This document shows, piece by piece, positions 4,420-49,200 of a stretch of DNA of 63,754 nucleotides. The DNA is taken from NCBI GenBank assembly GCA_009784425.1, contig WRBR01000001.1, positions 1 to 63,754 on the forward strand. Reading direction: 5' to 3'. Under the pieces are notes generated by a model, which was not told where the DNA came from, ran no database searches, and worked only from the letters and a program-made list of their open reading frames with translations. A program made the translations under genes and the position numbers. This DNA comes from Coriobacteriia bacterium (GTDB taxonomy: Bacteria > Actinomycetota > Coriobacteriia > Coriobacteriales > UBA8131). Position 1 is the stretch's first letter; every line of letters begins with the position of its first letter.

Positions 4420-6506
4420 GCCCCTATCTAGTAACAGCCCTTATTGCGCTCAGTGTTTTTTTGCTGCTGCTTGCAGCTTTTTTCATTGTGCGCTATCTGC
4501 TGAGGAATCGTCGCAAAAAAACGGTCTATCGCAGATCCTTTGTCCGAGCCGACCTCGACCTGGTCAAGGATACCGAGCAAATCCGCGGCTCCGGAAGTCT
4601 CAAGGAAAGATCCGGCAAGCAGGGGAGGGGCCGATTCTACGCGTTTGGCGTGCTCATGGCTGCCATCTTTGGCACCTTGTCGGTGCGCCTTTGGGGCCTC
4701 CAGATACTCGAGCACGATAAATACGTAAAGCTTTCGAGCCAAAACATGACCCAGCGGGTCAACGTGCCGGCAAACCGAGGCCGCATCTTGGACCGATACG
4801 GCAATGAGCTGGTGGGCAACCGCCCCTCCATCACCGTTACCGGCAAACGCACCTTGGCCGAGGATGCCGGCCTCGTGCAACGCCTGTCCCTTGTGTTAGG
4901 TATTCCGGTGGGCATTGTCCGCCGTAGAATCCTCGATGATTCTGAGGGCGTGCAGGCAGATCACACCATAGCAAGCGATGTGCCTATGGAATCGATTGCC
5001 TATATCCGCGAGCACCCCTCCTTGTTCAAAGGCGTAAATGTGGAGTCACGCACGGTGCGCTTCTACCCCTATGGTTCCCTTGCTTCCCACATACTGGGCT
5101 ACACGGGCCCGGTGACTGAGGACTTTCTCAAAGGGCAGCCTGGTGACGAGCCAAGCCCGTATATGCCCGGTGACATCATTGGAAAAGATGGCGCCGAGTC
5201 CAGGTTTGAAAAAATCTTACAAGGTACACGCGGATACACCGACTTTGAGGTTGATGCCTTTGGCAGGCCTACCGGCGAGGTCCTCGCTGAGGCAAATTCG
5301 CAAAGTGGCGATGATGTGGCACTCACCCTTGATGCCAATCTGCAGCGCGAGACCGACAAGATCCTCTACGACATCATCCAATTGGTAAGAAGCGACAGCG
5401 ATAACAAAGACTGCAACGCCGGCGCACTCCTCTGCATCGATGTTGAGGATGGCGGCATTTTAGCTTCTTCGAGTTATCCCACCTTCTTTCCGTCTGACCT
5501 CTCAAGGGGAATCTCCATTGAGCTCTGGGAAGAACTCACCTCGGTTGAGTCTGATTATCCGCTCACCAATCGGGTGGTCAGTGGCCTGTACCCTGCGGCA
5601 TCCACCTTCAAGATCTTCACTTCGCTCGCCGGCTTGCATCACCATATGATTACCGATGATACCACCTCGTATTGCACCGGTTATTGGGATGCCTACGGTG
5701 ACGAATGGGGCCAGCGCTGCTGGATCCATCCGGGAGGCCACGGCACCTTGGATCTTGAGGAGTCCATCAATTGGTCCTGTGATGTTTTCTTCTACATGCT
5801 AGGCGCTGCCTTTTATGAGCAGTGGTATGCCCTGAGGGATATCCCGGTTAACGAGCGCCCTAATCCCTTTCAAGACTACCTTGCCACCTGGGGTTTTGGG
5901 TCGCGCACCGGTATTGACTTGCCCGGCGAGGCAAGAGGCAGAATCCCCACAGCAGAATGGAAGTGGGATGAGTTCTCCGACACCCCCGAAGAGGCCATGT
6001 GGCAGCCGGGAGACATGACCAACATGGTCATTGGTCAGGGAGACTTACTGGTAACCCCCCTGCAGCTCTGCAATGCCTTTTGCACCTTTATCCGCGAAAA
6101 AGAGGTGACCCCTCATATTTTTAATCATGTCCTCGACTCTGAAGGCAATGTGGTGGTCACTTACAAGGCAGAAGAAGTTGTGGAGCGCCCTCAGTATGAG
6201 CCCCGGCACCATGACCGAGTTTTGGAGGGCTGCCGGCGAGTTGTTGCCCGTGAGGGTGGTTTTAGCAGCATTCCGGTGCCGGTTGCCGGCAAAACGGGAA
6301 CCGCCGAGGTTGCCGGCAAGGGCGACTGCTCTTGGTTTGTGGGCTGGGCGCCTGTGGAAAATCCCAAATATTGCGCGGTCTGCCTCATTGAGCAGGGCGG
6401 CAGCGGCTCGCTGGTGGCTATGAATGGGGTCATCCAGACCTTTGCCCGCATCTATGGCGTGGATGTTGGTCCTATCACCATCTGGCAGAACAGAAACGAG
6501 AGGTAG
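4416..6506 (+). CDS. mrdA: penicillin-binding protein 2 (elongasome transpeptidase)
   Basis: 696 aa. N-terminal TM and transpeptidase motifs STFK and KTGTAE. Start overlaps the mreD stop, and rodA lies immediately downstream. Confidence 0.9.
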   Translation: MSPYLVTALIALSVFLLLLAAFFIVRYLLRNRRKKTVYRRSFVRADLDLVKDTEQIRGSGSLKERSGKQGRGRFYAFGVLMAAIFGTLSVRLWGLQILEHDKYVKLSSQNMTQRVNVPANRGRILDRYGNELVGNRPSITVTGKRTLAEDAGLVQRLSLVLGIPVGIVRRRILDDSEGVQADHTIASDVPMESIAYIREHPSLFKGVNVESRTVRFYPYGSLASHILGYTGPVTEDFLKGQPGDEPSPYMPGDIIGKDGAESRFEKILQGTRGYTDFEVDAFGRPTGEVLAEANSQSGDDVALTLDANLQRETDKILYDIIQLVRSDSDNKDCNAGALLCIDVEDGGILASSSYPTFFPSDLSRGISIELWEELTSVESDYPLTNRVVSGLYPAASTFKIFTSLAGLHHHMITDDTTSYCTGYWDAYGDEWGQRCWIHPGGHGTLDLEESINWSCDVFFYMLGAAFYEQWYALRDIPVNERPNPFQDYLATWGFGSRTGIDLPGEARGRIPTAEWKWDEFSDTPEEAMWQPGDMTNMVIGQGDLLVTPLQLCNAFCTFIREKEVTPHIFNHVLDSEGNVVVTYKAEEVVERPQYEPRHHDRVLEGCRRVVAREGGFSSIPVPVAGKTGTAEVAGKGDCSWFVGWAPVENPKYCAVCLIEQGGSGSLVAMNGVIQTFARIYGVDVGPITIWQNRNER

Positions 6507-8727: not shown

Positions 8728-10647
8728 GTGATTAATCAGCACTCTCAAAGCCTGCGTTTAAAGCTTGAACCACTTCTCTCCAAGGTAGAGAAGCCTTCAC
8801 GCTATATTGGTGCTGAACTGTTTGGTGAGACAAAAGGGGACGGTTCATGTGTCCTGGTGTTGTCCCAGGACAACACCAGGACACATGAACCGTCCCCTTT
8901 TGTCTCACCAAACCCCGTCCCCCCTGTACCAAACGTCCCCCTGACAAGTCAGCTTGACGTAGCGCTTATTTACCCGGATGTGTATGAAGTAGGCGCTGCC
9001 AATCAAGCTCTGGTGATTCTCTACAACATAGCGCGCCAAATGCAAGGCGTGGGAGTTGAGCGCGCTTATCTGCCTTGGATTGATATGGCAGTACTCTTGC
9101 GTGAGGAAGGTCTGCCGCTTTGCAGCCTGGAAAGCGTGCGGCCGCTTAAGGATTTTGATGTTTTGGGCATCACCTTGGCGCATGAACTCGTTGCCACCAA
9201 TCTCTGCGAGCTCTTTGACCTTGCGGGTATTCCGCTGCTTGCCGCTGAGCGCGGCGAAGGCGTGCCCCTGATTTTAGGCGGCGGCCCCGTTGCCTATAAC
9301 CCAGCTCCCTTTGCCGCCTTCTTTGACGCCATCTGCATTGGCGAGGGCGAAGAAGCCTTTGCCGAGGCGCTGGAGGTGTTGGCGCAGGCTAAAGAGCAGG
9401 GCGCTAACCGCGCAGATCAGCTGCAAGCACTAGCCAACATCACGGGCTTTTATGTGCCCTCCCTTACGCAAAACACGGTTGAGCGCCGCATAGTGCAAAA
9501 CTTTGCCGACTATCCGGTGGTCACCAACCCCCTGGTGCCCTTTATCGAAACCAGCCAAGACCGCTTTTCGGTGGAGATTCTCAGAGGCTGTACGCGTGGC
9601 TGTAGATTCTGCGCAGGCGGCATGGTGAGCCGGCCGGTGCGTGAGCGCTCAGCCGACAGTGTGGTAGCAGCTGCCACTCAAGGCCTGGCTACAACCGGGC
9701 TTTCCGAGGTATCCCTTAATTCACTCTCAAGCACCGATCACAGCCAGATTGACCAAATACTCAGGCGCCTCACCGCTCGCTACCAGGAGACAGATATCAA
9801 GATTGGTCTGCCCTCACAAAGGCTCGACGCCTTTGGGGTTTCTATGGCAACCCTGGTGTGCGGCACCCAGAAAAAGGGCCTGCTCACCTTTGCACCGGAG
9901 GCCGGCACCCAGCGCCTCCGCGATGTCATCAACAAAAATGTCACCGAAGCTGACGTGTTAGGCGCGGTCAGCGCTGCCCACGAAGCCGGATGGCGGCGCA
10001 CCAAGTTCTACTTTATGATTGGTCTTCCTACCGAGACCGACGAGGATATCATCGCCATAACCGAGCTTGCCAACAAAGCCTACAACGCCGCCAAGGATGC
10101 CGTTGAAGACAGCGAGCGCGGCAAGGTGCGCATGAGCCTCTCTGTTGCCGTATTTGTGCCCAAGGCACATACGCCCTTTCAGTTTACCGGCCAGGTGTCG
10201 AGAGAAGAGCTGGATAGAAGGGTGCGCCTGCTTAAGGCCTCGCGCCTGCACAAAGGCATCGACCTGCACTGGCATGACCCTGCGGCCGCCATGATAGAGG
10301 CGGTATTCTCACGCGGCGATGCCCCGCTAGCCGAGCTTGGCATCAAGGCCTGGGAGCTGGGAGCACGCTTTGATGCCTGGAGCGAGCGCTTTAGCCTGGC
10401 AATCTGGCAAGAAGCTGCCGCTGCCTTGGGCGTGGAGCTTTCGGAGCTCGCCGAGCGCTCCTTTGCCGTAGACAAAGCCCTGCCCTGGGACTTTATCACC
10501 GGTGGCGTAAGCCGTGAATTTCTGGCTTTGGAATACCAGCATTCTCTCACCGGCGCCCTCACCCAAGATTGCACCTTGGGACCCTGCAGCAATTGCGGCG
10601 TCTGTGAAGGCACCGTTAAAACAGCATTGGCAGGCAAACGTGGCTGA
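8728..10647 (+). CDS. radical SAM protein (TIGR03960-like, B12-binding-like N-domain), carrying an in-frame palindromic insert near the N-terminus
   Basis: CTRGCRFC (CxxxCxxC) cluster motif. N-terminal KPSRYIG and PDVYEVG motifs are typical of this family. It is followed by its usual DUF2344 partner. GTG start. Confidence 0.88.
   Translation: MINQHSQSLRLKLEPLLSKVEKPSRYIGAELFGETKGDGSCVLVLSQDNTRTHEPSPFVSPNPVPPVPNVPLTSQLDVALIYPDVYEVGAANQALVILYNIARQMQGVGVERAYLPWIDMAVLLREEGLPLCSLESVRPLKDFDVLGITLAHELVATNLCELFDLAGIPLLAAERGEGVPLILGGGPVAYNPAPFAAFFDAICIGEGEEAFAEALEVLAQAKEQGANRADQLQALANITGFYVPSLTQNTVERRIVQNFADYPVVTNPLVPFIETSQDRFSVEILRGCTRGCRFCAGGMVSRPVRERSADSVVAAATQGLATTGLSEVSLNSLSSTDHSQIDQILRRLTARYQETDIKIGLPSQRLDAFGVSMATLVCGTQKKGLLTFAPEAGTQRLRDVINKNVTEADVLGAVSAAHEAGWRRTKFYFMIGLPTETDEDIIAITELANKAYNAAKDAVEDSERGKVRMSLSVAVFVPKAHTPFQFTGQVSREELDRRVRLLKASRLHKGIDLHWHDPAAAMIEAVFSRGDAPLAELGIKAWELGARFDAWSERFSLAIWQEAAAALGVELSELAERSFAVDKALPWDFITGGVSREFLALEYQHSLTGALTQDCTLGPCSNCGVCEGTVKTALAGKRG
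8824..8931. repeat. composite palindromic element, type A (42-nt arms) plus a type-B half-site, inside the radical-SAM CDS
   Basis: GGTGAGACAAAAGGGGACGGTTCATGTGTCCTGGTGTTGTCC / CA / its reverse complement, then AAACCCCGTCCCCCCTGTACCA. 105/108 identical to 23275-23382. Confidence 0.9.
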
Positions 10648-10650
10648 TTT

Positions 10651-10773
10651 GCTTTGGAACAGGGGGACGGGGTTAGTGTTCCAATTTGACCAAGGTCAAA
10701 TTGGAACACTAACCCCGTCCCCCTGTTCCAAAGCAAAAAGCGGGACACCAAGCCCCGTCCCCCTGTTCCAGCC
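10651..10773. repeat. palindromic element type B (41-nt arms) plus an extra half-site, between the radical-SAM and DUF2344 genes
   Basis: GCTTTGGAACAGGGGGACGGGGTTAGTGTTCCAATTTGACC / AA / its reverse complement, followed by ...CACCAAGCCCCGTCCCCCTGTTCCA. Confidence 0.9.
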
Positions 10774-10786
10774 CCCAAAGAGATAG

Positions 10787-12160: not shown

Positions 12161-13416
12161 AAATCAGGTATTACCTGCTTGCGCTTTTGGTTGTGGCGCT
12201 TTTGGGCATCGGCAGTGTGTTTTTATTGCCTGCGCCTGAGTACAAGCCAAACCTGACCCAGATAAATGATGTTGCTGCCTTGCTTGCAGAAAACATGGAC
12301 CAGATAAAAAACGACAGGAGCTTATTGCCTGCCAGCAGCTATGACTACGCTGTCATCGATGCGGAAGGAAACCTCATTCAAGCAACAAGAGAAGGGCTCT
12401 CGGAGAGTGTCTATGCGGCGCTGAAGAATGGGGACATCATCGTAGACATAGTGCAAGATGGGCAGCTGGCCGGCAAGGTGATTTTTGCTCACGATGCAAA
12501 AGCCCAGTGGCAAGCCTACCGCACCAAGCTGCAGATTATGGTTGCCGTCATTTTAGTGGTCATGCTCGCTCTAGTTCTCGCGCTTCTTTACACGATGCAC
12601 GCCCAGGTATTGCGCCCCTTTAGGAGCCTCAAGTCCTTTGCCGGAAGGATTGCAGCCGGTGAGCTGGATGCGCCCCTGAAAATGGAAAAGCGCAACCCCT
12701 TTGGCGCCTTTACCGAGAGCTTTGATCTTATGCGCGATGAGCTTAATAGGGCTCGGGCAAACGAGCAGGCCGCCGAGCGGTCAAAGCGAGAGCTGGTGGC
12801 CTCTCTCAGCCACGATATCCAAACCCCCGTTTCATCCATAAAGGCTGTAGCAGAAGTCATGGAGCTTACGGCTGAGCCCGGTGATGCGGAAAAACTCAAG
12901 ACAATACAAGACAAGGCAACGCAGATCAACACCCTGGTCACCGAGCTCTTCCATACCACCCTTGAGGAATTGAACTCGTTGAGTGTGAAGCTGACGGGTG
13001 TTCCCAGTAACCACATTGCTGAGCTGGTTCACGCTTCAGATTATCTGGACAAGGTCAGGGCAGAGGCCTTTCCCGGATGCCTAGTGCAGGCCGACCCGGT
13101 TCGCCTATCCCAGGTGCTGGATAACATCATCATGAACTCTTACAAGTATGCAGATACCGCCATTTGGGTGAGCGCGGAATTGGACGATGGCGGCTTTACC
13201 CTCACGCTCCGAGACGAGGGGCCCGGCGTGGCTGAAGAAGAGCTGCCCCTTCTCTGCTCCAAGTATTTTCGCGGCAGCTCTGCCGAGGCAAAGGATGGAT
13301 ACGGCCTGGGGCTTTTCATAGCCCATCACCTTATTGAGCGCATGGGTGGCCGCCTGGAGTGCTTCAATGTAAGCTCCGGCTTTGCCGTGCGCATCTGGCT
13401 CGGGCTCGATGAATAA
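12157..13416 (+). CDS. sensor histidine kinase (HisKA + HATPase_c)
   Basis: Two TM segments flank a roughly 115-aa extracytoplasmic loop. HAMP-like segment, H-box SLSHDIQTP and G-box GYGLGLFIA. The ATG overlaps the regulator stop (ATGA). Confidence 0.9.
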   Translation: MKIRYYLLALLVVALLGIGSVFLLPAPEYKPNLTQINDVAALLAENMDQIKNDRSLLPASSYDYAVIDAEGNLIQATREGLSESVYAALKNGDIIVDIVQDGQLAGKVIFAHDAKAQWQAYRTKLQIMVAVILVVMLALVLALLYTMHAQVLRPFRSLKSFAGRIAAGELDAPLKMEKRNPFGAFTESFDLMRDELNRARANEQAAERSKRELVASLSHDIQTPVSSIKAVAEVMELTAEPGDAEKLKTIQDKATQINTLVTELFHTTLEELNSLSVKLTGVPSNHIAELVHASDYLDKVRAEAFPGCLVQADPVRLSQVLDNIIMNSYKYADTAIWVSAELDDGGFTLTLRDEGPGVAEEELPLLCSKYFRGSSAEAKDGYGLGLFIAHHLIERMGGRLECFNVSSGFAVRIWLGLDE

Positions 13417-16771: not shown

Positions 16772-16812
16772 AGCTGAGAGCACAAAGGGACCGTCCCTTT
16801 GTGCTCTCAGCT
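16772..16812. terminator. 20-bp perfect hairpin after the ABC permease gene (GGGACCGTCCC at the apex)
   Basis: AGCTGAGAGCACAAAGGGAC C GTCCCTTTGTGCTCTCAGCT. There is no clear U-tract, so its terminator function is inferred from position only. Confidence 0.5.
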
Positions 16813-16818
16813 TTGTAC

Positions 16819-16976
16819 CTCGCGGCATAGAACCGTGAGTTCGTGTGACAAATGCAGCGAAATGTACGGAAATATCCCCAAATACAACTATAAACCTATA
16901 AAAACAGGCAATAATAAGGAGAAAACCGTACATTTCGCTGCATTTGTCACACGAACTCACGCTTCTATGCCGCGAG
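16819..16976. repeat. MITE-like inverted repeat: 51-bp arms (50/51 complementary) around a 56-nt AT-rich spacer
   Basis: CTCGCGGCATAGAACCGTGAGTTCGTGTGACAAATGCAGCGAAATGTACGG at 16819-16869, with its reverse complement at 16926-16976. Confidence 0.85.
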
Positions 16977-17853: not shown

Positions 17854-18030
17854 AGGTAAAAGCCACTAAGGGGTCTGATTAATACAGCAGCTACACTTGG
17901 TTTGAGTGGGCGCTGATCAATTGCCCACTCAGCTGCTTAGTATATTTATTATGCCAACGCAGTTTATTAAGGATTCATTAAGATAACTCTACCCATTTCC
18001 TTAACAAAACATATAAGAGGGCATTTGAGC

Positions 18031-18110
18031 GGGACAAAAGGGGACGGTTCATGTGTCCTGCTGGTGTCCCAGGACACCAGCAGGACACATGAACCGTCCC
18101 CTTTTGTCCC
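18031..18110. repeat. palindromic element type A, intergenic copy
   Basis: Outer arms match 8824/23275 (AAAAGGGGACGGTTCATGTGTCC). The apical stem differs on both arms (CTGCTGGTGTCC/GGACACCAGCAG versus CTGGTGTTGTCC/GGACAACACCAG). Confidence 0.9.
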
Positions 18111-18233
18111 GGTGAGTCGCTGCCTACGCTCTGTTTACAGAATATTCACATTTTTGCTTTGGGAGATATGCTGTTTAGGCGATTACTGGGGTAAAATCAA
18201 TATACGTACCAAAAAAGAGATTAGAGAAGCGCT

Positions 18234-21134
18234 ATGGGCAGTGAAGAACATAATGACTTTGATGAGATTCAGGCAAAACCAGAAGAATCTAACTTATCAA
18301 CGCCGCTGGAACCAACGGCACCTTTAGAGTCGGATCAACCACCCCCACCTTCAGCGCCGACAACCTCACCGGTTTCGCCGCCATCAAAGGCGGAGTCTGC
18401 GCCGGCAACCTCACCGCTTGCGCCTCCAGCCCCGGCAGCCCCGCCGATTATTCCTCCAGCAGCGACACCCTCACCGGTTGCACCTCCAGTGCCGATAACC
18501 CCACCTGTTGCTCCTCCACCTACAGCTCCGGTTATTTCAGTAACACCTCCGCCTCCGGCAGCAGCTGTGCCGGTCACGCCTCCAGCTCCATCGACTCCTC
18601 CCGCGCAGAAGCCAACTATCGGCTCTGCAGCTGGGTTCCAACCACAGCAACCGGCAAGCATTGGGTCAGCTGCGGGATTTGCTCCTTCCCCGGCACCCCC
18701 TGCGGCAACAACACCTCCTGCGCCTCCTGCACCAACGGCACCTCTTGCACCAGCGGCACCTGCAGGCTATGCTCAGCCGCAGGGTCAGTACGTCGCTGCG
18801 CAGAGAGGGCAGTACTATCCACCTCAGCAGACATCACCTTACGGCCAACCTTACAACCAGACATACGGCCAGCCACAGAGCCAGCCTTACACTCAACCTT
18901 ACGGCCAGCCACAGAGCCAGCCTTACGGCCAAACCTACGGCCAACCTTACGGCCAAACCTACGGCCAAACCTACGGCCAATCTTACGGCCAAACCTACGG
19001 CCAAACCTACGGCCAGCCTTACGGCCAACAACCTGGGTACCAAATGCCCACGTTTACTCCTCATGCCCCGCCCGCAAAGAAAAGAAAAGCCTGGCCGTTT
19101 GTGCTGGGTGGCATGGCAGTCTTGTTTATCCTGTTTTTGGCTATGGCCGTTGCCTTGGTAATGTGCAGTTCTGATGACCCCGTATACAATACAAACAGCA
19201 GCTGGGAAGCCCTCGTTTATACCGACCACAGCGCAACTTTGGCCGAGCGTTACGACCCCAACGATACCTGGGCAATCTACTGGTATCTCTGCGGCAGTGA
19301 CCTTGAAACAGACGCTGGCCTTGCCACAATGGATCTTCAAGAGATGATGAAGGTAAAACTGCCAGAAAATGTTGTGGTCATCATAGAAGCGGGAGGCTCA
19401 AGAGTCTGGCATAACGGATTTGATCCAAATTCCAACGGCCGTTACATTTATGACAGCAACGGCTTGAGGCTCTTGGAGGACAACCCCCGCGCCAACATGG
19501 GCGATAAAAAAACCCTCATCTCCTTCTTGGAGTTCTGCACCACTAAATACCCTGCCGACCACCAGGTTGTGATTTTCTGGAATCACGGCGGCGGCAGCAT
19601 CCCGGGTGTCATCTTTGATGAGCAGTATGGCTTTGATGCCCTGAGTCTCATGGACATCAGGGAGGCCTTTAGCGCAGTAAGCACCCCTTCAACGGTAAAC
19701 CCGCCTTTTGAGTTGATTGGATTTGACGCCTGCCTCATGGCTACCATTGAAACGGCTGAGACCCTGAAGGGATTTGCCAAATGGATGGTGGCTTCGGCAG
19801 AGATGGAGCCTGGAATCGGTTGGGACTACACGGGATTCCTTCAGGCTTTGGCAAATGACACCGGCATAGGTGGCGCCATGCTCGGCAAGGAGATATGCGA
19901 CTCCTTCTACAGCGCGTGTGTTGCAATTCGTCAGGCAAATGAGGCAACACTCTCGGTAATAAACCTGCAGAAGATTGATCCTCTGTTGGATGCCTACCAC
20001 AACATTGGGGCAGAGTCGTTGCTCTTTGCCTGTCAGAATGCCTCCTACGTCAGTGACTTTGGGCGCGCGGCAGTCAAGGCTCAAGATTATGGATTCAACA
20101 ACTCTTGGGATGGTTACACCAATATGGTTGACCTGGGCGATCTGGTCCATCAGCTGGGCAGCAATCTGCTTCCTGAATATGGAGCAGAGTTGCTCAATGC
20201 CTTGGATGCATGCGTGGTGTACCAGGTATACGGCCCCTTCCGCGACAGGTCCTCCGGGCTTGCCTGCTTCTACAACTACAGCGGCAGCGTTGATGCCTTC
20301 AGAGGCTTTTCTGAGCTTCAGGCAGATAGCCCCTTCCGCTGGCTTTACTACTACGAGCTTGCCGGTACGCTCAATGACGAGGGCATCCTCTTTGTGCAAA
20401 ACCTGGCCTTTATCTACGCGCCGGACAGAACTATCGTTCCGGGCGAGGTTGAAAGTGCCGAGGAGTTTGACCTCGATGACTGCCAGGTAAGAGGCGCTGA
20501 TGATGGTTCTGTTGTCATGAATCTAGGCTCTGAGGCTGCCAGCAGGCTTACCGGTGTCTACAGTTTTCTGGCTTATTACGACGAGGATACCGGCATAATC
20601 ATCCTGCTTGGCAGGGATAACGACATCGTCAACGACTGGGAAAACGGAATCTTCAAAAATCATTTCCGCGGCGTATGGGGCTGCATTGACAACACCCTTG
20701 TCTTTATGGAGCTCACCGACGAAGCCGATGATTACCAGCTTTACTCCATACCCGTGCTTCTTAACGGCGAAGAATACTCAATATCCGTCAGTTACACCTA
20801 TGCAACCAAGGAGTACGAAATCTTAGGTGCCCGCCGTGGAATCGACGACAATGGTATGGCGGACAGAAATCTTATTCAGCTCCAGCCGGGAGACGTCGTT
20901 GAGCCCTTACACTATGTAATCTATGACACGGCGGACGCGGAGTTTGAGCAAAAGGCACTTGAGAAATTCATAGTTACAGAAAACACCCGGTTTACCGAGG
21001 AAGATCTGGGCGACGGCATATTCTTCATCCTTTTTGAGATGATTGACGTGCTGGGCAACGAATACCTGTCAGAAGCAGCAGCCTTTATCGTGAAGGATGG
21101 AGACATCTCTATCTTCACCCATGAAGACGCTTGA
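18234..21134 (+). CDS. membrane-anchored clostripain-like (peptidase C11) protein with a roughly 280-aa Pro/Gln/Tyr-rich cytoplasmic N-terminal region
   Basis: KKRK followed by [27 protein letters not shown]11-like catalytic dyad context VIFWNHGGG and [10 protein letters not shown]-terminus is low complexity with (YGQP/T)n repeats. Confidence 0.75.
18924..19030 (+). repeat. about 9 tandem 12-nt units TACGGCCAAACC encoding (YGQT/P)n within the C11 peptidase gene
   Basis: Read directly from the sequence; in-frame coding repeat. Confidence 0.9.
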
Positions 21135-23559
21135 TTTAGGTATGGCTATCGATCTTTCCAGTCTCAACTCTCAGCAATACGAGGCCGCCACAACAACCGA
21201 GGGGCCTTTGTTGCTTTTGGCTGGCGCCGGCACCGGTAAAACGCGCGCGCTTACGTATCGCATTGCCCATATGGTTGAGAATCTGGACGTTGCTCCCTGG
21301 CAGATACTGGCCATCACTTTTACCAATAAGGCCGCGGCTGAGATGCGCGAGCGCCTGGCCGACCTCCTGGGAACCACCAGGGGCATGTGGATACTCACTT
21401 TTCATGCTCTCTGCGTGCGCATTTTGAGGAATCACGGCGAGCTTTTGGGCTTTAGCCCTGGCTTCACCATTTACGATGACGACGATTCCAAGCGCTTGGT
21501 CAAGGAGATATTGACCAATCTAGACGTCAACACCTCTACCTATCCCTTGAATACTTTGCGTGGAAACATCTCTCGGGCAAAGAATGAGCTCATCAATGCC
21601 GAGGAGTATGCCGCCAGCGCAAAAAGGCCCGTTGAGAAGGTCACTGCCCGCGTTTATTGCGAGCTGGAGCGGCGTTTGCTCCAGGCAGATGCCGTGGATT
21701 TTGATGACTTGCTCTTGCATGCCTGGCGCATTCTCAAGGACTACGCCGAGGTGCTTGAGGGCTATCAGGAGCGCTTTCTTTATATCTCAATAGACGAGTA
21801 CCAAGACACCAACCACGCCCAGTACAGCATAGCCAACCTCTTAGCCGCCAAACACCAAAACATCATGGTGGTGGGCGATGACGATCAGTCCATCTACTCA
21901 TGGCGCGGCGCCGACATCCGCAATATCCTCGAGTTTGAAAAGGACTACCCGGGCGCCAAGGTCTTGCGCCTTGAGCAAAATTACCGCTCAACCTCTTTGA
22001 TTCTCGAGGCAGCCAACAATGTTATAGCCAATAACAAGGACCGAAAGGCCAAGCACCTCTTCACCAAAGGTGAACAGGGCGAGCGCATCTGTCTCTATCT
22101 TGCTAATAACGAGCGCGACGAAGGGCGCTGGATTGCCGGGGAGATTGAGCGCTTGCACCGCTCCGGTCACTCCTACAACGACTTTGCGCTTTTTTATCGT
22201 ACTAACGCCCAGAGCCGTACGCTTGAGGATATGTTGCTGCGCGCCGGTGTGCCGTATCGCATTTACGGAGGCACGCGCTTTTTTGACCGTGAGGAAATCC
22301 GTGACATCATGGCCTACCTCAAGCTCATCGTTAATCCGCTTGATGACATTGCTGCCAAGCGAATCATCAACAAGCCGCGGCGGGGGATAGGCAGCACCAC
22401 CGTCACCCGCATTGAGCAGCTGGCGGCTGACGAGCAATGCAGCTTCATGGACGCCGCCGAGCTTGCGCTGGCTGATGAGGCGCTGCCCAAGGCGGCGCTT
22501 CGCAGCGTAGGGGAGTTTGTGCAGCTCATCAAGGACCTGCGCCTCTTAATGGGTGACCTGCGCAGCATCGTGGAGATTGTTGCAGAAAAGAGCGGTCTCA
22601 TGGACTATCTGGCCTCTTTGCCCTACGAAGAGGCAATCACACGCAAGGAGAATGTACAGGAGTTCTTTGGCGTAGCTGCCGAGTTTTCGCAGCAGCATCT
22701 GGAACAGGGGGACGGGGTTGGTGCTCTGGAACAGGGGGACGGGGTTGGTGTTCCAATTCCTGCGGAATTGGAACACCAACCCCGTCCCCCTGTTCCAGAG
22801 CACCAACCCCGTCCCCCTGTTCCACGTCCCCTTGTTCCAGAAACTTCTGCCTCAACAGCGCTTATTGCTTTTATGGAGTGGCTTGCTCTCAGGAGTGACC
22901 TTGATACTATGGTGGAGGGCGAGGACTACATTAAGCTGATGACCGTGCACACGGCAAAAGGACTGGAATTTAAAATTGTCTTTATCGCCGGCATGGAAGA
23001 GGGCATCTTCCCCCACATGATGAGCATAACGGGTGGCCGCGGTGTTGAAGAGGAGCGGCGCCTGGCTTACGTGGCTATTACCCGCGCGCGCCAACTGCTG
23101 TATCTCACCAGCGCGCAGCAACGCTCGCTTTTTGGGTCGTTTTCTGCCAATCCGCTCTCGCGCTTTACCACGGAAATCCCTGCTCAGCTGCAGAGGCGCA
23201 TTGGTCTGGGCTCGCAAGGCATTCAAGGCGTTGGCTGGGAAAAGCGCGGCAGCAGGGGCGGCGTTTTTGGTGCTGGTGAGACAAAAGGGGACGGTTCATG
23301 TGTCCTGGTGTTGTCCCAGGACAACACCAGGACACATGAACCGTCCCCTTCTGTCTCACCCAACCCCGTCCCTCCTGTACCACCGGTACCCAACAAAGAC
23401 CAGACCTTTGAGGTGAACGATGCAGTTGAGCACAAGGTCTTTGGGCGCGGAACAGTCATTTCTGTTGATGAGGGCACTATTGAGGTACAATTTGATAAGA
23501 ATAATAAGACGCGCAAATTGCTTGTTGAATTTGCTCCCCTGGCCAAGATTAAAACGTAA
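21121..23559 (+). CDS. pcrA: ATP-dependent DNA helicase PcrA/UvrD, carrying two in-frame palindromic inserts
   Basis: Motifs AGAGTGKT, DEYQDTN, TVHTAKGLEF, VAITRA and a C-terminal Tudor-like tail (HKVFGRGTVISV). The start could be ATG 21121 or ATG 21142. Confidence 0.93.
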   Translation: MKTLDLGMAIDLSSLNSQQYEAATTTEGPLLLLAGAGTGKTRALTYRIAHMVENLDVAPWQILAITFTNKAAAEMRERLADLLGTTRGMWILTFHALCVRILRNHGELLGFSPGFTIYDDDDSKRLVKEILTNLDVNTSTYPLNTLRGNISRAKNELINAEEYAASAKRPVEKVTARVYCELERRLLQADAVDFDDLLLHAWRILKDYAEVLEGYQERFLYISIDEYQDTNHAQYSIANLLAAKHQNIMVVGDDDQSIYSWRGADIRNILEFEKDYPGAKVLRLEQNYRSTSLILEAANNVIANNKDRKAKHLFTKGEQGERICLYLANNERDEGRWIAGEIERLHRSGHSYNDFALFYRTNAQSRTLEDMLLRAGVPYRIYGGTRFFDREEIRDIMAYLKLIVNPLDDIAAKRIINKPRRGIGSTTVTRIEQLAADEQCSFMDAAELALADEALPKAALRSVGEFVQLIKDLRLLMGDLRSIVEIVAEKSGLMDYLASLPYEEAITRKENVQEFFGVAAEFSQQHLEQGDGVGALEQGDGVGVPIPAELEHQPRPPVPEHQPRPPVPRPLVPETSASTALIAFMEWLALRSDLDTMVEGEDYIKLMTVHTAKGLEFKIVFIAGMEEGIFPHMMSITGGRGVEEERRLAYVAITRARQLLYLTSAQQRSLFGSFSANPLSRFTTEIPAQLQRRIGLGSQGIQGVGWEKRGSRGGVFGAGETKGDGSCVLVLSQDNTRTHEPSPSVSPNPVPPVPPVPNKDQTFEVNDAVEHKVFGRGTVISVDEGTIEVQFDKNNKTRKLLVEFAPLAKIKT
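22699..22840. repeat. nested type-B palindrome (two tandem units per arm) inside the pcrA CDS
   Basis: A 62-nt left arm, TGC loop and matching right arm span 22699-22824, followed by an extra degenerate half-site to 22840. Confidence 0.9.
23275..23382. repeat. composite type A + B-half element inside the pcrA CDS (linker before the C-terminal Tudor-like domain)
   Basis: 105/108 identical to 8824-8931 and read in the same frame. Confidence 0.9.
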
Positions 23560-24584: not shown

Positions 24585-26711
24585 ATGCTTATCTGTAATG
24601 CCAGCGCTATTACCAAGTCCTTTGGCTCGCGTGTTTTGTTTTCGGAGGCAACGTTTGCCGTTAAGTCATCCGACCGCATAGCGTTGGTTGGCGCCAATGG
24701 CTCGGGTAAAACCACGCTGCTCAATATGATTGCTCAAAGAGAGTCGCAAGATAGCGGCACGCTCACCCTCGCAAAGGGCGTGAACACCGGTTATCTGGAG
24801 CAGGAAGTTTTTGGCATTTTGAGCGAGGCAAGCGTTTTAGCAAGCGTGCTTGAAGCCAAGCAGGATGTTTTAGACATGCGCGAGAGGCTTACTGTTTTAG
24901 AAGCCAAGCTGGGAGAAGATAACAACTTTAACAGCGCTGGTGAAGCAACAGACCTTGAGCATGAGCAATTGCTCAAAGAGTATGGCCGCCTCTCGGATCT
25001 TTTTGAAAACTCCGGTGGCTGGAACTTGGAATCCGATGCCATGACGGTGCTTACCGGGCTTGGGTTTAAAATGTCCGATGCTAATCGTCAGGTAAAAGAG
25101 TTTAGCGGCGGTTGGCAGATGCGCATTGCGCTTGCACGCCTGCTTTTTGCGCGCCCTGATCTGTTGCTGCTTGATGAGCCCACCAACCACCTTGATCTGG
25201 AGAGCGTGCGCTGGCTTGAGGCCTTTTTACGCAGCTACGAGGGAGCCGTTGTGGTGGTAAGCCACGACCGCGCCTTTATGGACGGCATGGTGAGCCGCAT
25301 TTGGAACATTGAGCACGAGCAGATTCATGTGTACGCAGGCGACTACACCGACTTTGAAAAGGCAAGAGAAAGGGAGCTTGAGGCCAGGCAAGCTGCCTAT
25401 GAGCGCCAAAAGGTGGAGATTGCTCAAATTGAGCTGTTTATTAACCGCTTTAGATACAAGGCTTCTAAGGCGCGGCAGGTGCAAGAAAGAGTCAAGAAGC
25501 TTGAGAAGCTTGAACGCATCAAGCCGGTGGAGGTAAAGAGCAAAATCAAGTTTCGCTTTAAACAACCGCCGCGCACCGGCGACCAGGTTATAGAGCTCAG
25601 AGACATTGCCAAGTCTTACGGCAGCACCTGCGTGTACGGCGGCGAGCATCCGCTGCTCAACCTCAAGCTCTACCGCGGTGACCGTGTGGCGCTGGTAGGG
25701 CCAAACGGCGCCGGCAAGTCCACCATGCTTAAGATTTTGGCTGGCGTTTTGCCTTTTGAAAGCGGCGAGCGCTTGCTCGGCTCCAAGGTTGAGTCAAGTT
25801 ATTATGCGCAACATCAGGTGGAGCAGCTCAAACCCGGCGCCACGGTTTTTGAGGAGCTGGAAGGGGTGACCCCCGGCTGGACTATCAGCGAGGTGCGCGG
25901 CCTGTTGGGCGCATTTCTCTTTACCGGCGACGATGTCATGAAAAAGGTGAGAGTGCTCTCTGGTGGAGAAAAGAGCCGGCTCGCGCTGGCTAAGATGCTG
26001 GTGAGCCCTGCCCCGCTACTTTGCATGGACGAGCCCACCAATCACCTCGACATTCCCTCAAACGATGTTCTTGAGGCGGCGCTGCTAGCCTTTACCGGCA
26101 CGCTGGTGCTGATTACCCACGACAGGCATCTCATCCGCAAGGTGGCCAACCGCATCATCGAAGTTGACGCAGGCCGCGTACGCGAATTCGTGGGCAACTA
26201 CGATTATTACCTACGCAAAAAAGACGAAGAAACCGGAGACCAAGCCTTTTTTATGGACGGCTCTCAAATTGCTGTTCCTGTAGATAAACCTCCGCGCGCT
26301 AAAAAGCACGCGCACAGCGATAAAGTAAGCACTGTTGGTACAAGAGGGACGGGGTTTGGTGTACCTGTTTCCTTGGAAACTGGTACACCAAACCCCGTCC
26401 CTCTTGTACCAACGGCTGGCAGTCGAAAAACCAAGGAGCAAAAGCGCCTTGAGGCAGAAGCGCGCACCCGCACCTATCGCATGTTCAAAGAAGACCGTGA
26501 GCGACTTGAGGTGCTGGAGCCCGAGCTAGAGCAGGCGCAAGAAGAATACGACCGCATCGTAGAAGCTATGGCAGACGAGGCGCTTTATAATGACAAGGAA
26601 GGCTTTGCAGCCTTGATGGACAGGTATAATGAACTCAAGCGGCTTATCCCCAAGCTCGAAGAGGAGTGGCTGGATATCACCGCCCGCATAGAAGACGAAC
26701 TGAACGGATAA
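24585..26711 (+). CDS. ABC-F family ATPase (translation-factor type), carrying an in-frame palindromic insert in the C-terminal linker
   Basis: Two ABC cassettes ([15 protein letters not shown]; [17 protein letters not shown]), no TM domain, and a C-terminal coiled coil. Confidence 0.92.
26334..26413. repeat. type-B' palindrome (GGTACA variant) inside the ABC-F CDS
   Basis: GTTGGTACAAGAGGGACGGGGTTTGGTGTACCTGTTTCC TT GGAAACTGGTACACCAAACCCCGTCCCTCTTGTACCAAC. Confidence 0.9.
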
Positions 26712-28580: not shown

Positions 28581-28582
28581 GA

Positions 28583-28760
28583 GTGGTACAGGAGGGACGG
28601 GGTTTGGTGAGTGGTACAGGAGGGACGGGGTTAGTGTACCACTTTGGCTCTTGAGCCAAAGTGGTACACTAACCCCGTCCCTCCTGTACCACCTCCTGTA
28701 CCACTCACCAAACCCCGTCCCTCCTGTACCACTCACCAAACCCCGTCCCTCCTGTACCAC
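28583..28760. repeat. nested type-B' palindrome between trpS and scpA
   Basis: Two GGTACAGGAGGGACGGGG units, an apical stem CACTTTGGCTC TT GAGCCAAAGTG, and three mirror units on the right. Confidence 0.9.
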
Positions 28761-28781
28761 TCCCAGTAAGAAACGAGAGGC

Positions 28782-30284: not shown

Positions 30285-30357
30285 ATGAGTCATGGGGACG
30301 GGGAAAGTGACTCTTTTATGCAGAAAAAGAGTCACTTTCCCCGTCCCCGTGACTCAT
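30285..30357. repeat. palindrome of the GAGTCA-GGGGACGGGG-TGACTC type between scpB and rluB
   Basis: ATGAGTCATGGGGACGGGGAAAGTGACTCTTTT / ATGCAG / its reverse complement (1 mismatch). A half copy recurs at 63604-63633. Confidence 0.88.
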
Positions 30358-32112: not shown

Positions 32113-32652
32113 ATGCAGGAAGAATTCAGGATACTTGGTGTTGATCCCGGGTTGGCTAACTCAGGCTGGGGGATTATCGCTGTGCAGGGGAGTAAGCTCA
32201 GGCCGCTTGCTTATGGTTCGATTTCTACTGACTCAAAAGAGGAGCTGCCGCTGCGTTTAGCCAGGATTTATGATGAGTTTGCAGCGGTTATTCTCAAGTA
32301 TGTACCTGCCGAGCTGAGCATTGAGACTATCTACCATAAGGGCAATCCCAAGAGTTCGCTTTCAACGGCTCAGGCGCGCGGAGTGGCTCTGGTGGCTGCG
32401 GCACGCAGTTCGCTGGTGGTAAACGAGTACGCCCCTTCTGCGATAAAGCAGGCGGTGGTTGGCACAGGGTCAGCCACCAAACAGCAGGTGCAGTTCATGG
32501 TGCGGAGCCTGCTAGAGCTCAATCACACCCCCGAGCCCAATCACGCAGCCGACGCCTTGGCTGCCGCCATCTGTCACGCACACCTTCGCAGGTATAATGG
32601 TTTGGTACAGGAGGGACGGGGCTTGGTGAGTGGTACAGAGGGACGGGGTTAG
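32113..32652 (+). CDS. ruvC: crossover junction endodeoxyribonuclease RuvC
   Basis: ILGVDPG and ADALAAAICHAH motifs. The last roughly 17 codons and the TAG stop lie inside the palindromic repeat 32603-32736. Confidence 0.92.
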   Translation: MQEEFRILGVDPGLANSGWGIIAVQGSKLRPLAYGSISTDSKEELPLRLARIYDEFAAVILKYVPAELSIETIYHKGNPKSSLSTAQARGVALVAAARSSLVVNEYAPSAIKQAVVGTGSATKQQVQFMVRSLLELNHTPEPNHAADALAAAICHAHLRRYNGLVQEGRGLVSGTEGRG

Positions 32653-32736
32653 TGTACCACTTTGGCTCTTGAGCCAAAGTGGTACACTAACCCCGTCCCT
32701 CTGTACCACTCACCAAGCCCCGTCCCTCCTGTACCA
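32603..32736. repeat. nested type-B' palindrome covering the 3' end of ruvC
   Basis: Nearly identical to the 28583 element, including the apical stem CACTTTGGCTCTTGAGCCAAAGTG. It contains the ruvC TAG stop. Confidence 0.9.
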
Positions 32737-32753
32737 CACAAGGAAGGAAAAAC

Positions 32754-40151: not shown

Positions 40152-40356
40152 GGTGTCACGGAGGAAGGTGTCACGGGAGGGGAGTCACAGGGACGTCAGA
40201 CTGTGTGAAAACACATTAATTCGTCATTCCGGGCTTGACCCGGAATCTAATAACATGCCATTCAAGATTCCGGGTCAAGCCCGGAATGACGTTTTCACAC
40301 AGTCTGACGTCCCTGTGACACCCGTGACACCCCTTGACACTCCATCCCCGTGACAC
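40144..40356. repeat. composite palindrome: outer arrays of GGTGTCA(A/C) words enclosing a 118-bp nested-hairpin element (40193-40310)
   Basis: Left GGTGTCAAGGTGTCACGGAGGAAGGTGTCACGGGAGGGGAGTCACAGGGAC, mirrored at 40311-40356. The inner element has ACGTCAGACTGTGTGAAAA termini and two ATTCCGGGCTTGACCCGGAAT hairpins. Confidence 0.85.
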
Positions 40357-42062: not shown

Positions 42063-42220
42063 TTTTGCCTGAAAACGCGTCCTGTGGGTACTATTTTTCA
42101 AGCCAGGAGCGTTGTCCTGGAATGACCCGCGCAATCTACCAGCAGTTTAGCAATCCAAGAAATTCTGAAGGGCTCCACCATAAAAAGAAAAGTACCCACA
42201 GGGCGCGTTTTCAGGCAAAA
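42063..42220. repeat. MITE-like element with 30-bp terminal inverted repeats (29/30)
   Basis: TTTTGCCTGAAAACGCGTCCTGTGGGTACT at 42063-42092, with its complement at 42191-42220. Internal small hairpin CCAGGA-GCGTTG-TCCTGG. Confidence 0.75.
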
Positions 42221-46248: not shown

Positions 46249-49200
46249 ATGGCAGCTAAAAAAAGAAAAACCACCTCTCAACGATCCTTCAAGATATCGC
46301 TGCTTGTGGTATTGCTTACCGTTGCACTGGTGTTGGCGATGCCGCTTACTGCGTTTTCTGAGGAGGGCGGGGGCGCAACCCCTGAAAAGACTGGCTCTTC
46401 ATCTATCATCGCCTTTGGTTCCGGAGCAGCAAGCTTGCATATTAACGGCGGCACAGGCCTTACCTTCTCCTTTGTGTTTCTCACCTCGGGTGGGTCGCAG
46501 CAGACGATAAACATCCCCGGAAACGGCACGGTAACAGCGGTGTATCCCAATGGAAGCGCACTCGCTGCGGGTGATCAGCTCCTCTATGTATTGGTTTCTG
46601 ACTCCAACGGAAACCCCATTGGCACCATCCTGCAAAACGCTATTGGGCATAAGAGCGACGCGGGCGCGGTTTTGCAGGCAGACGGCTCTATGGGATCCAA
46701 TGGAAACATGGTGGGTAACACCGGAACCATCAACTTTTGGTTTAATGGCTTTCCAACTGGTGGCGGCACCCCGCCGAGTCCGCCCAGTATTCCTTCGTCT
46801 TACCTCATGGCTAACAAGGTTTGGCTCAATGCGGATGGCACACCGGATACCAACCCGCCCTCAGGTTTCACTTTTGTTTTGAATGGAACCATTCCCGGTG
46901 GGGGAACGGTCTCGAATATTGCGGTGCTTCCCGGTGTTCCGATTTTGGTTCAAGACGGCACCTATACCATCTCCGAGCCTGACATACCCGGCTTCACGCT
47001 CACGAGTGTTGTTTCAAGCACCATGCAACCGAATCTTGCCGATAGGTCAGCTTCGGCCACCACCTCCAACGGTAATTACTCGGCAACGTTTACCAATCAG
47101 ATTACCCCCATTAACTATCTCTTTACCATCGATGGGTTGAAGGTTGGCAACGGTGCTCCGCTGAGCCCCGGCCTTTTCAATTTCACTGTCACGGACAACG
47201 CAACGGGCTTGGTGGTTGCCACGGCTACGAATACTGCTGAAGCCTACATCTCTTCCACCAGCACGGCATACGGTTATATCACTTTCACGCCCATAACGTA
47301 CACCGCGGCAGACGTAGGCACTCACACCTACACGGTTTCAGAAGTGGGCACCAACAGCCCTCTTTGGACCTATGACAGCACAACGCAGTGGACGGTGCAG
47401 GTTACGGTCTCAATGGCCCCTGACGGCACCATCAGCGTAACCAACGACCTATACCCCAATATTGAGTTCCACAATTATTACAATGCCGTGGCCTCCTTCC
47501 AGCCTCAGGCCACCAAAACGGTCTCTGCGGGTGCTCACCTGGCAGCCGGGCAATTCAACTTTGCTGTTGAGGATAACGCAACGGGCTTGATAGTATCCAC
47601 CGGCACCAATGATGCAAGCGGCAACATCAACTTTGCTCATCTCACCTTTAACAGCAACCAGACTGGTGTGCATACCTACACCATCTATGAGACCACCCCA
47701 AACAGTACCGGCTGGTATACCGATGCCCATAGATATACCTTGGTTGTGGACGTGGAGCCCGACCCCAGCAGCGCCACCGGGTACAGTATCACCTCTTACT
47801 ACCAGGACTCAGGTGGCAATACCATCCCCAGTATCAATTTCAACAATGTCTATTATCCGCGCGCGTTTTTCTCCTTGTCTGCGTTTAAGCAGACCAACGG
47901 CGGTCCTCCTCTTACCTATGGCCAGTTTCAATTTGCTGTTCTTGACGAAGGGGGCAACGTAGTTGCTACGGGCACCAACGCCGCCGACGGAACCGTCACT
48001 TTTAGCTACATCGATTACTATCTGAGCGATGTGGGCTTTCACCAGTACTGGATTGTTGAGACAACGCCTTCAACAGGCAGCTGGACAACCAGCACCGTTG
48101 AATACCCGGTACTCGTGTATGTGGGAGATAACAGCAACGGCACCATGCAGGTTACGCCGTTTGTCTTGAACACGTCGAGTTACATTTTCATCAATACCTA
48201 TAGCTCATTTGGATCTGTCGATCTTACCGCCACCAAGACTGTCAGGGGCAGCACGCTCGCTGACGGACAGTTCTCCTTTGCCGTGCAGGATGCTAACGGG
48301 GTAATCGTGGCTACCGCCACCAACGACGCGGCCGGAAACATTGTTTTTCCTGAGATACATTACACCGATGCCGACGTGGGAACCCACGTGTACACGATAC
48401 TCGAGACAAGCCCCGGCGGAAACGGCTGGTCGATAAGCCCGGTGGTCTTTAGTGTTACCGTTGAAGTTGTTGATAACGGAAACGGCACGGTTACCGCAAC
48501 ACCCACCTATGACGGCGGCGGGCCGCCCACTTTTGTCAATACCTATGGCTCGGTTGGTTCTCTGGCCCTTGATGCTGAGAAGGTGGCGATTGGCGGCACG
48601 CTCACTGCCGGCCAGTTCTCCTTTGCTGTGCAAGAGGGTGGCATCACCGTGGCCACTGCTACCAACGATGCAGACGGATACATCCTCTTCCCCGCTATTC
48701 AGTACGACTCAACTGATGTGGGAACACACAACTACACCATTATCGAAACCAGCCCGTCGGGAGGCGGCTGGGTTACCGATACTACGGTTTTTCTCGTAAC
48801 AGTCGTTGTTGTCGATAACGGTGATGGTACTATCACCGCAACGCCAGACTATCTCCCTGGGGAGATTGAGTTCACCAACACCTACTCGGCGTATGGCTCC
48901 GAAACTTTAACCGCCACTAAAGTGGCCAGGGGAGAGCCACTGCCTGCGGAGCCCTTCACCTTTGAGGTTCTCGACCAAGGCGGAGCAACGGTTGCAACCG
49001 GAAGCAACGATGCGTCCGGTAACATCACCTTTACCCCGATAGACTTTACCAACCTTGATGTAGGGTTGCATCGCTATGTGATTGTAGAGACCGGCGGTGG
49101 GCCGGGTAGTGGCTGGACCCTCAGCACCAGCCAGATAGCCGTTTGGATTACTGTTGACGATAACGGCGATGGCACGCTTACCATCACAACGGTCTACCCA

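Follow-up and report, generated by a model that had tools for sequence, protein, structure and literature searches.

In an uncultured Coriobacteriia bacterium, pcrA, a helicase gene of essential type, carries a long palindrome that is read in frame with the flanking helicase sequence. The gene lies in a 63,754-nucleotide stretch of a metagenome contig (WRBR01000001.1, positions 1 to 63,754), and this whole stretch is referred to here as the window. We conclude that the pcrA segment is probably one member of a non-autonomous palindromic repeat family of the REP (repetitive extragenic palindromic) or REPIN (REP doublet forming hairpin) type, in which two tandem units are followed by their mirror image. 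The gene and the parts of the palindrome are as follows.

21142..23559, + strand: coding sequence of pcrA, a UvrD-family helicase and host of two elements (open reading frame (ORF) 21097-23559; the database gene call starts at residue 16).
22699..22824, no strand assigned: nested palindrome (REPIN-like doublet of doublets) encoding the peptide LEQGDGVGALEQGDGVGVPIPAELEHQPRPPVPEHQPRPPVP, with zero stops in all six frames.
22698..22751, + strand: two tandem G-rich units with a 27-nt period, each with GGGGGACGGGGTTGGTG (family D2).
22771..22824, + strand: two tandem C-rich mirror units with CACCAACCCCGTCCCCC (family D1).
22825..22842, + strand: extra degenerate C-rich half-unit (CGTCCCCTTGTTCCAGAA) that adjoins the palindrome on its right side and shows 83-90% complementarity to the left units.

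The two arms (22700-22760 and 22764-22824) are 61 nt each and 100% complementary, and are separated by a 3-nt loop, TGC (22761-22763), giving a total of 125 bases. The left-arm units occupy 22698-22724 and 22725-22751 (27 nt each) and their mirror units 22771-22797 and 22798-22824. The predicted folding energy of the single strand is -89.9 kcal/mol for DNA (z = -18) and -143.9 kcal/mol for RNA (z = -20), and 0 of 200 shuffles reached the fold energy of the palindrome. The Pfam domains UvrD-helicase, UvrD_C and PcrA_UvrD_tudor flank the insert on both sides in the same ORF. Intergenic copies at 10648, 28611 and 32603 read GGGGTTAGTG on one arm and CACTAACCCC on the other, and the pcrA copy reads GGGGTTGGTG and CACCAACCCC. 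Changing CAA to TAA in the right arm in silico produced two in-frame stops, while reverting the left arm replaced only Gly by Ser. A preliminary description of this DNA, made from its letters alone, had reported the palindrome, its frame within pcrA, the two sets of arm readings and the effect of stop reversal; all of these were confirmed, and the description was therefore accurate.

The same description had regarded the segment as an insertion, expected in a surface loop. On alignment, query residues 517-568 correspond to only two residues (524-525) of Geobacillus stearothermophilus PcrA (PDB 1PJR), which by the published domain boundaries fall in domain 2B. Among 16 Coriobacteriia orthologues, the stretch from EFFGVAAEF to LIAFMEWLALRSDLD is variable in length, from about 10 to 90 residues, and mostly acidic. 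An AlphaFold model of PcrA, built from a shallow alignment, had a mean pLDDT (predicted local distance difference test) score of 68, and the score fell below 50 at residues 522-569 and 694-752, the sites of both pcrA palindromes. Both inserts therefore lie in predicted disordered loops or linkers, and the view of the segment as an insertion is supported. The domain-2B loop is a permissive site, in which the insert is probably translated as a disordered Gly/Pro-rich loop of about 45 residues. If translated, the element would yield peptides such as GDGVGVPIPAELEHQPR and GDGSCVLVLSQDNTR.

The element is not unique to pcrA. The 16-nt core GGGGACGGGGTTRGTG matched the window 13 times at up to 2 mismatches, against 0.10 matches expected, an excess of about 130-fold, and the window contains more than ten long palindromes with 2-3-nt centres. 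The basic unit carries a conserved G-rich core of 12-15 nt, GGGGACGG(GG)TT. In the inner units this core occupies the loop of a short hairpin with a stem that differs from copy to copy, and two inverted units form a long hairpin or cruciform. Two core types occur in the window, type A (GGGGACGGGGTT) and type B (GGGGACGGTTC). At least five copies, about 5 of the 13 elements, are in frame (pcrA twice, an ABC-F gene, a radical-SAM gene and the tail of RuvC). Besides the pcrA palindrome described above, the copies are as follows; L094 and L095 are the closest relatives of the window.

23275..23391, no strand assigned: second in-frame pcrA element, situated in the linker that precedes the tudor domain; its type-B palindrome (23275-23360, GGGGACGGTTC core) is followed by a type-A unit.
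8820..8950, no strand assigned: type-B composite, in frame in the N-terminal region of the radical-SAM gene, between conserved RYIGAEL and DVALIYPDVYEVG.
26334..26413, no strand assigned: type-A palindrome, read in frame within the linker that precedes the C-terminal domain of ABC-F; L094 and L095 have an empty site here.
32600..32739, no strand assigned: nested type-A palindrome in the RuvC tail, the first part encoding the last ~17 RuvC residues and the remainder being intergenic.
10648..10737, no strand assigned: intergenic type-A (TTAG) palindrome that begins directly after a stop codon.
18030..18111, no strand assigned: intergenic type-B palindrome.
28581..28762, no strand assigned: intergenic nested type-A cluster in the trpS-scpA spacer; trpS and scpA overlap in L095.
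30285..30357, no strand assigned: intergenic palindrome, GGGGACGGGGAAAG variant, in the spacer between scpB and an rluB-like gene.

The radical-SAM and second pcrA copies are near-identical across a stretch of about 115 nt, and the 36-residue peptide that they encode is the same (GETKGDGSCVLVLSQDNTRTHEPSP.VSPNPVPPVP). In RuvC the stop codon itself (32650-32652) comes from the TTAG of the element, and several intergenic copies begin 0-1 nt after a stop codon. Only 2 of 6 frames are open in type A1 (the stop-containing type-A subfamily) and 4 of 6 in type B, yet every intragenic copy is open in the frame that is used. This argues that the elements are translated and not removed. Simple slippage in a low-complexity linker was considered as a source of these segments, and is contradicted by the presence of near-identical sequence in unrelated genes and spacers.

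Further details of the window copies were noted. The composites at 8805-8960 and 23260-23400 lie in two unrelated genes in the same frame, and each is preceded by native TTGGTGCTG. This sequence resembles the TTGGTG of the element's own unit and may be a target motif, as in the insertion of IS200/IS605-type insertion sequences (IS) beside a short specific sequence. Where an element is asymmetric, its extra or degenerate half-units are rich in C and stand to the right, downstream on the + strand, in 5 of 5 cases, all beside + strand genes (8914-8950, 10738-10777, 22825-22842, 23361-23391 and 28693-28762); this may reflect a strand bias of replication or transcription. The end of the window (63600-63754) has one GGGGACGGGGAAAG unit and, after it, an inverted repeat with 31-nt arms that reaches the contig end (63657-63754), and contig L101 extends past this point at 99.2% identity.

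Type-A copies of this lineage fall into two subfamilies, A1 (TGGAACAGGGGGACGGGGTTAGTGTTCCAATTTGACC, then aa), which has stops, and A2 (GTGGTACAGGAGGGACGGGGTTGGTGTACCACTTTTTGCC, then ga), which is open in six frames. Many intergenic copies belong to the A2 (TTGG) subfamily, TT(T)GGTG is likewise the reading of the outer units in nested A1 copies between genes, and the TTGG variant is present in Oribacterium too. To compare the arms we used a core-anchored census of doublets in about 0.26 Mb of sequence (the window, contigs L098-L122 from the same source and relatives L094-L096), having dropped a pair-count covariation test on perfect palindromes as circular. The arms were perfect in 42 of 53 doublets, with 16 mismatches in 1816 positions (0.9%), whereas about 30% of ungapped positions differed between copies. 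The private variants TGAG, TAAG and TTAGG were each mirrored on both arms, and arm symmetry was equally strict in intergenic copies. Compensatory arm changes have been reported to be common in REPINs (PMC3116915).

The preliminary description had taken TTGG/CCAA to be a change specific to pcrA, and the paired arm changes to be a peculiarity of that copy. Neither view is supported in that form: the TTGG subfamily is widespread outside genes, the corresponding units of close relatives already carry G (see below), and mirrored variants occur family-wide. When TTAG and TTGG were tabulated for coding (n = 5) and intergenic (n = 34) type-A copies, the contrast amounted to a trend only (Fisher p = 0.15). 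The account of the TTGG/CCAA pair in terms of selection thus has partial support only.

The history of the pcrA site can be followed in L094 and L095, which are syntenic with the window at 74-77% nucleotide identity. At the same position and in the same frame both contain two direct G-rich units (encoding QGDGAGAP and PGDGAGVPVRGTE) with 25-26-nt spacing and without an inverted arm. These degenerate orthologous units read GGGGCTGGTG in both relatives, again in the same frame. Units with the G variant therefore already occupied the site when the lineage of the window diverged from L094 and L095, and the G predates the present palindrome. More distant orthologues, such as L096, are without the units. 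A homologous protein segment without palindromic DNA in orthologues, which the preliminary description had named as a refuting result, is seen in part: the GDG(A/V)G stretch of L094 and L095 is homologous, but the DNA that encodes it forms no palindrome.

The pcrA units of the window are near-identical to the dispersed copies of the genome (GGAACA stems, TGTTCCAATT), and we therefore judge recent re-occupation or conversion to be likelier than compensatory evolution in place. From these comparisons, the present perfect palindrome most likely arose by re-occupation or conversion of the site by a current, stop-free family member. Alternatively, a TTAG element could have inserted in pcrA, acquired CAA in place of TAA, and had the complement copied to its other arm there, either because the hairpin was selected for or because one arm served as the template for correction of the other (intramolecular gene conversion), so that the palindrome was kept perfect over evolutionary time. 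Such an origin would account for the A-to-G change of the left arm, which translation does not require (it only turns Ser into Gly) but which is present in all units, and for the lack of any mismatch in 61 bp at a site that was occupied before a split now measured at about 75% nucleotide identity. The centre has also lost a TGA that the A1 consensus would put in this frame, and the exact pcrA variant is unique in the sample. Against this, the orthologous units of both relatives already have the G variant, which is common at intergenic sites and in other taxa; intergenic copies are just as symmetric; other intragenic copies (the second pcrA element and that in ABC-F) carry an arm mismatch; and the pcrA units match the dispersed family, not the diverged orthologous units, which points to recent exchange. 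We therefore consider it unlikely that the paired substitutions were acquired in place.

A related proposal is that the two ancestral direct G-rich units were mirrored where they stood, by replication fold-back or template switching, the G variant being automatically mirrored as CCAA. The direct units without an inverted arm in L094 and L095, the G variant shared with both, and the occurrence of very long perfect palindromes (arms up to 107 nt) in the lineage are all consistent with an inverted duplication of this kind. However, dispersed copies at other places in the genome have a matching inner unit and centre (GTGTTCCAATT...), the degenerate C-rich half-unit at 22825-22842 suggests an older right arm, and dozens of unrelated loci show this doublet architecture, as expected of a mobile doublet. 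On balance, we regard inverted duplication at the site as very unlikely.

A more general possibility is that active, hairpin-templated correction between arms, or site-specific re-targeting of old REP remnants, keeps translated palindromes perfect in essential genes. We hold this to be rather unlikely; if true, the elements would keep supplying proteins with disordered linkers and would even give rise to gene fusions.

The palindrome could in principle be a chimeric or fold-back product of metagenome assembly. The contig is derived from a metagenome, a look-up of the exact PcrA protein found no independent assembly of this copy, and the end of one contig has a very long palindrome: at 12221-12436, where the fetched stretch of L100 ends, lies a perfect palindrome with 107-nt arms and three units per arm. 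The pcrA element, in contrast, lies in the interior of a 64-kb contig and does not disrupt the frame of a conserved gene, degenerate units occupy the same site and frame in relatives, and the family is present in isolate genomes (Butyrivibrio, Oribacterium, Collinsella tanakaei and Enorma massiliensis). An artefact is thus extremely improbable. The L100 palindrome itself is either the longest family member or an assembly fold-back.

Other palindromes were seen in the corresponding genes of the relatives. In L094 the C-terminal linker of pcrA contains a different perfect palindrome of 98 nt (4633-4730) and the ABC-F arm a type-B palindrome (6287-6356), and an unrelated 52-nt palindrome lies at the ABC-F linker site in L096 (15163-15214). 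The same linkers are therefore empty or contain other palindromes in relatives, and appear to be recurrent landing sites. The ABC-F arm of L095 encodes RGNDISGRGNDIS, which from its sequence we suspect to be a translated repeat.

A scan of one genome per species for GGGACGGGGTT-N25-50-AACCCCGTCCC detected at least 93 loci across Firmicutes, Collinsella, Enorma and a few others. Among the matches listed were Lachnospiraceae (Butyrivibrio, Pseudobutyrivibrio, Oribacterium, Roseburia, Schaedlerella and Herbinix), Syntrophomonadaceae, the Peptococcaceae-type genera Desulfotomaculum and Pelotomaculum, Dehalobacterium, Sporomusa and other Negativicutes, Collinsella tanakaei and Enorma massiliensis, together with single metagenome-assembled genomes (MAGs) labelled Deltaproteobacteria, Alphaproteobacteria and Ignavibacteriales. 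Outside the lineage of the window the copies are almost all intergenic. In the MAG labelled Alphaproteobacteria (L021, 7114-7162) two units lie in frame in a 2,3-bisphosphoglycerate-independent phosphoglycerate mutase gene (iPGM_N and Metalloenzyme domains) and encode RDGVWNEMRDGVCNPVP. A scan of viral contigs gave 0 matches to the doublet, and there is thus no sign of phage carriage.

A metagenome scan added 25 contigs, nearly all from one Joint Genome Institute (JGI) metagenome (Ga0123353), one of which overlaps the window end at 99.2% identity. Two of the lineage contigs contain joined reading frames. On the - strand of L113 (3205-5862) a single 886-residue ORF for a flavin adenine dinucleotide (FAD) oxidoreductase, with DAO, BFD-like [2Fe-2S] and Pyr_redox_2 domains, contains three in-frame elements, and in L103 (7467-8762) HPPK (folK) is joined to an RsmI-like methylase via an element. 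The elements at these junctions are stop-free, and the fusions may be real or only apparent.

The ORF adjoining an element in the Lachnospiraceae locus L014 encodes a Y1 transposase. This protein and its homologues contain Pfam Y1_Tnp and a C-terminal helix-turn-helix (HTH), the latter on the evidence of weak HTH_7, HTH_23 and HTH_28 matches at residues ~225-256 of the L014 and L080 proteins. The best NCBIfam model was NF047646, REP-associated tyrosine transposase (RAYT), at 75-83 bits (cut-off 80), while the IS200 model scored only about 20 bits; homologues are named "REP-associated tyrosine transposase" or "RayT" by NCBI and JGI. In each of the five Lachnospiraceae loci examined (L014, L080, L124, L125 and L126), inverted units stand on both sides of the Y1 (HUH) transposase gene. 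In L124-L126 a GGGGACGGGGTT unit lies about 118 nt upstream of the gene and an inverted AACCCCGTCCCC unit overlaps its stop codon. L080 has both units in flanking DNA, and L014 has a degenerate unit on one side of the gene and a doublet on the other. The 16-mer GGGGACGGGGTTAGTG is identical in the RAYT-flanking unit of Butyrivibrio (L125) and at 10663-10678 of the window. These Lachnospiraceae loci have the architecture of REPtrons, and the short doublets would then be REPIN-type derivatives without a transposase gene.

In the mechanism that we propose, doublets would be mobilised in trans via single-stranded hairpin intermediates. Only copies able to form the hairpin would propagate, so that each new copy would be born symmetric, and it is for this reason that variants would appear mirrored on both arms. 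Insertion may occur everywhere, with persistence only where the element is tolerated and the frame used has no stop; tolerated sites would be those just after stop codons, intergenic spacers, and disordered loops, linkers and termini of proteins.

Several observations weigh against assigning the pcrA copy to a REP/REPIN-type family mobilised in this way. The classical REP has a GTAG/CGTC tag at the foot of its stem, whereas the unit described here has a conserved 12-15-nt G-rich core or loop and variable stems; CGTC/GACG sits within this core or loop, not at the stem foot. A local stem of at least 6 bp is present in only about a third of units (32%, against 6% in a partner-shuffled control). 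The combination found in pcrA, of GGAACA stems, TTGG and the centre AATTCCtgc, has no second copy in the sample, and some change of the pcrA copy after insertion is accordingly possible. That copy is known from a single assembly, since the second member of the PcrA protein cluster, on a contig of equal length (63,754 nt), is probably from the same contig under another gene start. Searches with tblastn and a profile hidden Markov model from 120 homologues found no RAYT-like gene in the window or in about 0.2 Mb of further lineage contigs, and mobilisation in this organism is therefore inferred from other phyla. Finally, comparison of filled and empty sites at ABC-F and in the trpS-scpA spacer revealed no target-site duplication and no clean element boundary.

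Other classes of element were also considered. A CRISPR array, an integron attC site and a terminator-only function were set aside on anatomy. Rfam 15 returned nothing at gathering score; at an E-value threshold it returned eukaryotic microRNA-precursor models only, below their cut-offs, a generic effect of long hairpins. A full-text literature search with the core strings retrieved eukaryotic primers only.

The window contains several further repeats and genes. A 41-nt perfect palindrome (AGCTGAGAGCACAAAGGGACCGTCCCTTTGTGCTCTCAGCT) centred on GGGACCGTCCC lies at 16772-16812, between an FtsX-type permease gene and a VanZ-like gene; after it, at 16819-16976, comes an inverted repeat whose 51-nt arms are 98% complementary and enclose a spacer of 56 nt. 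A separate inverted repeat with 36-nt arms is found at 42063-42220. A clostripain-family peptidase (C11) with an N-terminal region of about 300 residues that is Pro-rich and contains YGQ(T/P) repeats is encoded at 18234-21134, and two giant surface-type proteins are encoded at 46249-52041 (1930 residues, 11 FctA/Spy0128-like domains) and 56916-63089 (2057 residues, YDG and MBG domains).

The closest known systems are the REPINs and their RAYT transposases (Bertels & Rainey 2011, PMC3116915; Nunvar 2010, PMC2817692). As in these, hairpin units are paired in inverted orientation into a long hairpin, many copies are dispersed in each genome, clusters and nested arrays occur, arm changes are compensatory, and units bracket a Y1/HUH transposase gene, in this case in Lachnospiraceae. 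The present elements differ in that their arms are nearly perfectly complementary up to a 2-3-nt centre, and in that about 5 of 13 in the window lie in frame within coding sequence, whereas REPs are almost exclusively extragenic. Their hosts are Firmicutes and Coriobacteriia, not Proteobacteria, and the lineage sample is without a RAYT.

Intragenic location is itself known among REPs. According to Di Nocera et al. (2013, PMC3733652), ORFs can contain entire REPs and REP dimers, and a strikingly large proportion of these lies in repair and replication genes; the hosts of intragenic REP dimers include UvrD/REP helicase, uvrA/B, recB and dnaE2, and REP termini can supply stop codons. The same study described the Rickettsia palindromic elements (RPEs) RPE-4 and RPE-6 as CGTC REPs. 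The parallel with RPEs drawn in the preliminary description was apt, as the palindromic repeat lies in frame in intact genes at surface or linker positions. The likeness extends to palindromic inserts that add 20-80 residues to functional genes, to several inserts per gene, to repair and replication hosts including UvrD/REP helicase, and to the supply of stop codons (here in RuvC). The sequence family, unit anatomy and phylum are different, however, the palindromes described here are longer and perfect, and a candidate class of mobilising enzyme can be named. As judged by description, the published CGTC-type anatomy of RPE-4 and RPE-6 does not fit the pcrA unit, and neither does the definition of a CGTC-tagged REP (CGTC tag, 8-9-bp stem starting with AT, 4-5-nt loop and short tail). 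An unrelated family in the window, CGTCATTCCGGGCTTGACCCGGAATCT, present as inverted doublets at 40222-40291 and 56781-56850, does fit that definition (CGTC tag, 8-bp stem starting with AT, short loop); its first doublet is nested in another inverted repeat (GGGAGTCACAGGGACGTCAGACTGTGTGAAAAC) at 40180-40323.

The enzyme found in Lachnospiraceae can be compared with the TIRYTs. TIRYT genes are RAYT-like and are flanked by inverted repeats with a GGGGWSAS motif (PMC3733652); they form RAYT subclass 2.1, with a C-terminal HTH, and a 2018 survey found no REP-like hairpins beside subclass 2.1 genes (Quentin et al. 2018, PMC6006769). Similarly, the Lachnospiraceae enzyme combines Y1 with a C-terminal HTH and has flanking inverted repeats with a GGGG-rich motif, as in a TIRtron, and the repeats form moderately abundant dimer families. 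The TIRYT motif is GGGG[AT][CG]A[CG], whereas the present one is GGGGACGG, which agrees at 7 of 8 positions and differs at position 7. The flanking units here, unlike those of subclass 2.1, are of hairpin type and abundant, and the enzyme is a candidate member of the subclass by its domain content.

MITEs, miniature transposable elements with inverted repeats, offer a further comparison. Classical examples are Nezha, Chunjie and Correia. Like the present elements, MITEs are small and non-autonomous and are sometimes inserted in frame without destroying the host gene (PMC10969869). In contrast to classical MITEs, no terminal inverted repeats of a DDE-type IS and no target-site duplication were seen here, and the whole element is palindromic.

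Since intragenic REPs and TIRYTs have been described (Di Nocera 2013; Quentin 2018), this kind of system is already known, and the statement in the preliminary description that it had no described equivalent requires qualification. REP dimers in UvrD/REP helicase are on record (PMC3733652), but for this phylum we found no described equivalent in a literature search dominated by unrelated microbiome papers, and Firmicutes and Coriobacteriia hosts are unmentioned in the two surveys (PMC3733652, PMC6006769). The preliminary description had also placed the DNA in a high-GC Gram-positive; the phylum was right, but the window is only about 53% G+C.

These comparisons extend the RPE phenomenon, in which selfish palindromic DNA is turned into protein, from Rickettsia and Proteobacteria to gut-type anaerobes of Actinomycetota, and show one REP core to be common to several phyla. 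They also tie the phenomenon to a testable enzyme class, the RAYT/TIRYT-type transposase with a GGGGACGGGGTT hairpin on both flanks, present in cultured Butyrivibrio strains. The tolerance of perfect palindromes of 125 to 216 bp in coding DNA bears on palindrome stability and on the handling of mRNA hairpins by RNase III and the ribosome, and in metagenome gene calling stop-free repeats can give spurious small ORFs and apparent gene fusions. The pcrA element is thus a translated REPIN/RPE-like palindromic repeat, the gut-anaerobe counterpart of the RPEs rather than a new kind of system. The family differs from the systems already described in the anatomy of its unit, its hosts, its near-perfect symmetry, with arms of up to 107 nt, and the high share of intragenic copies in this lineage.

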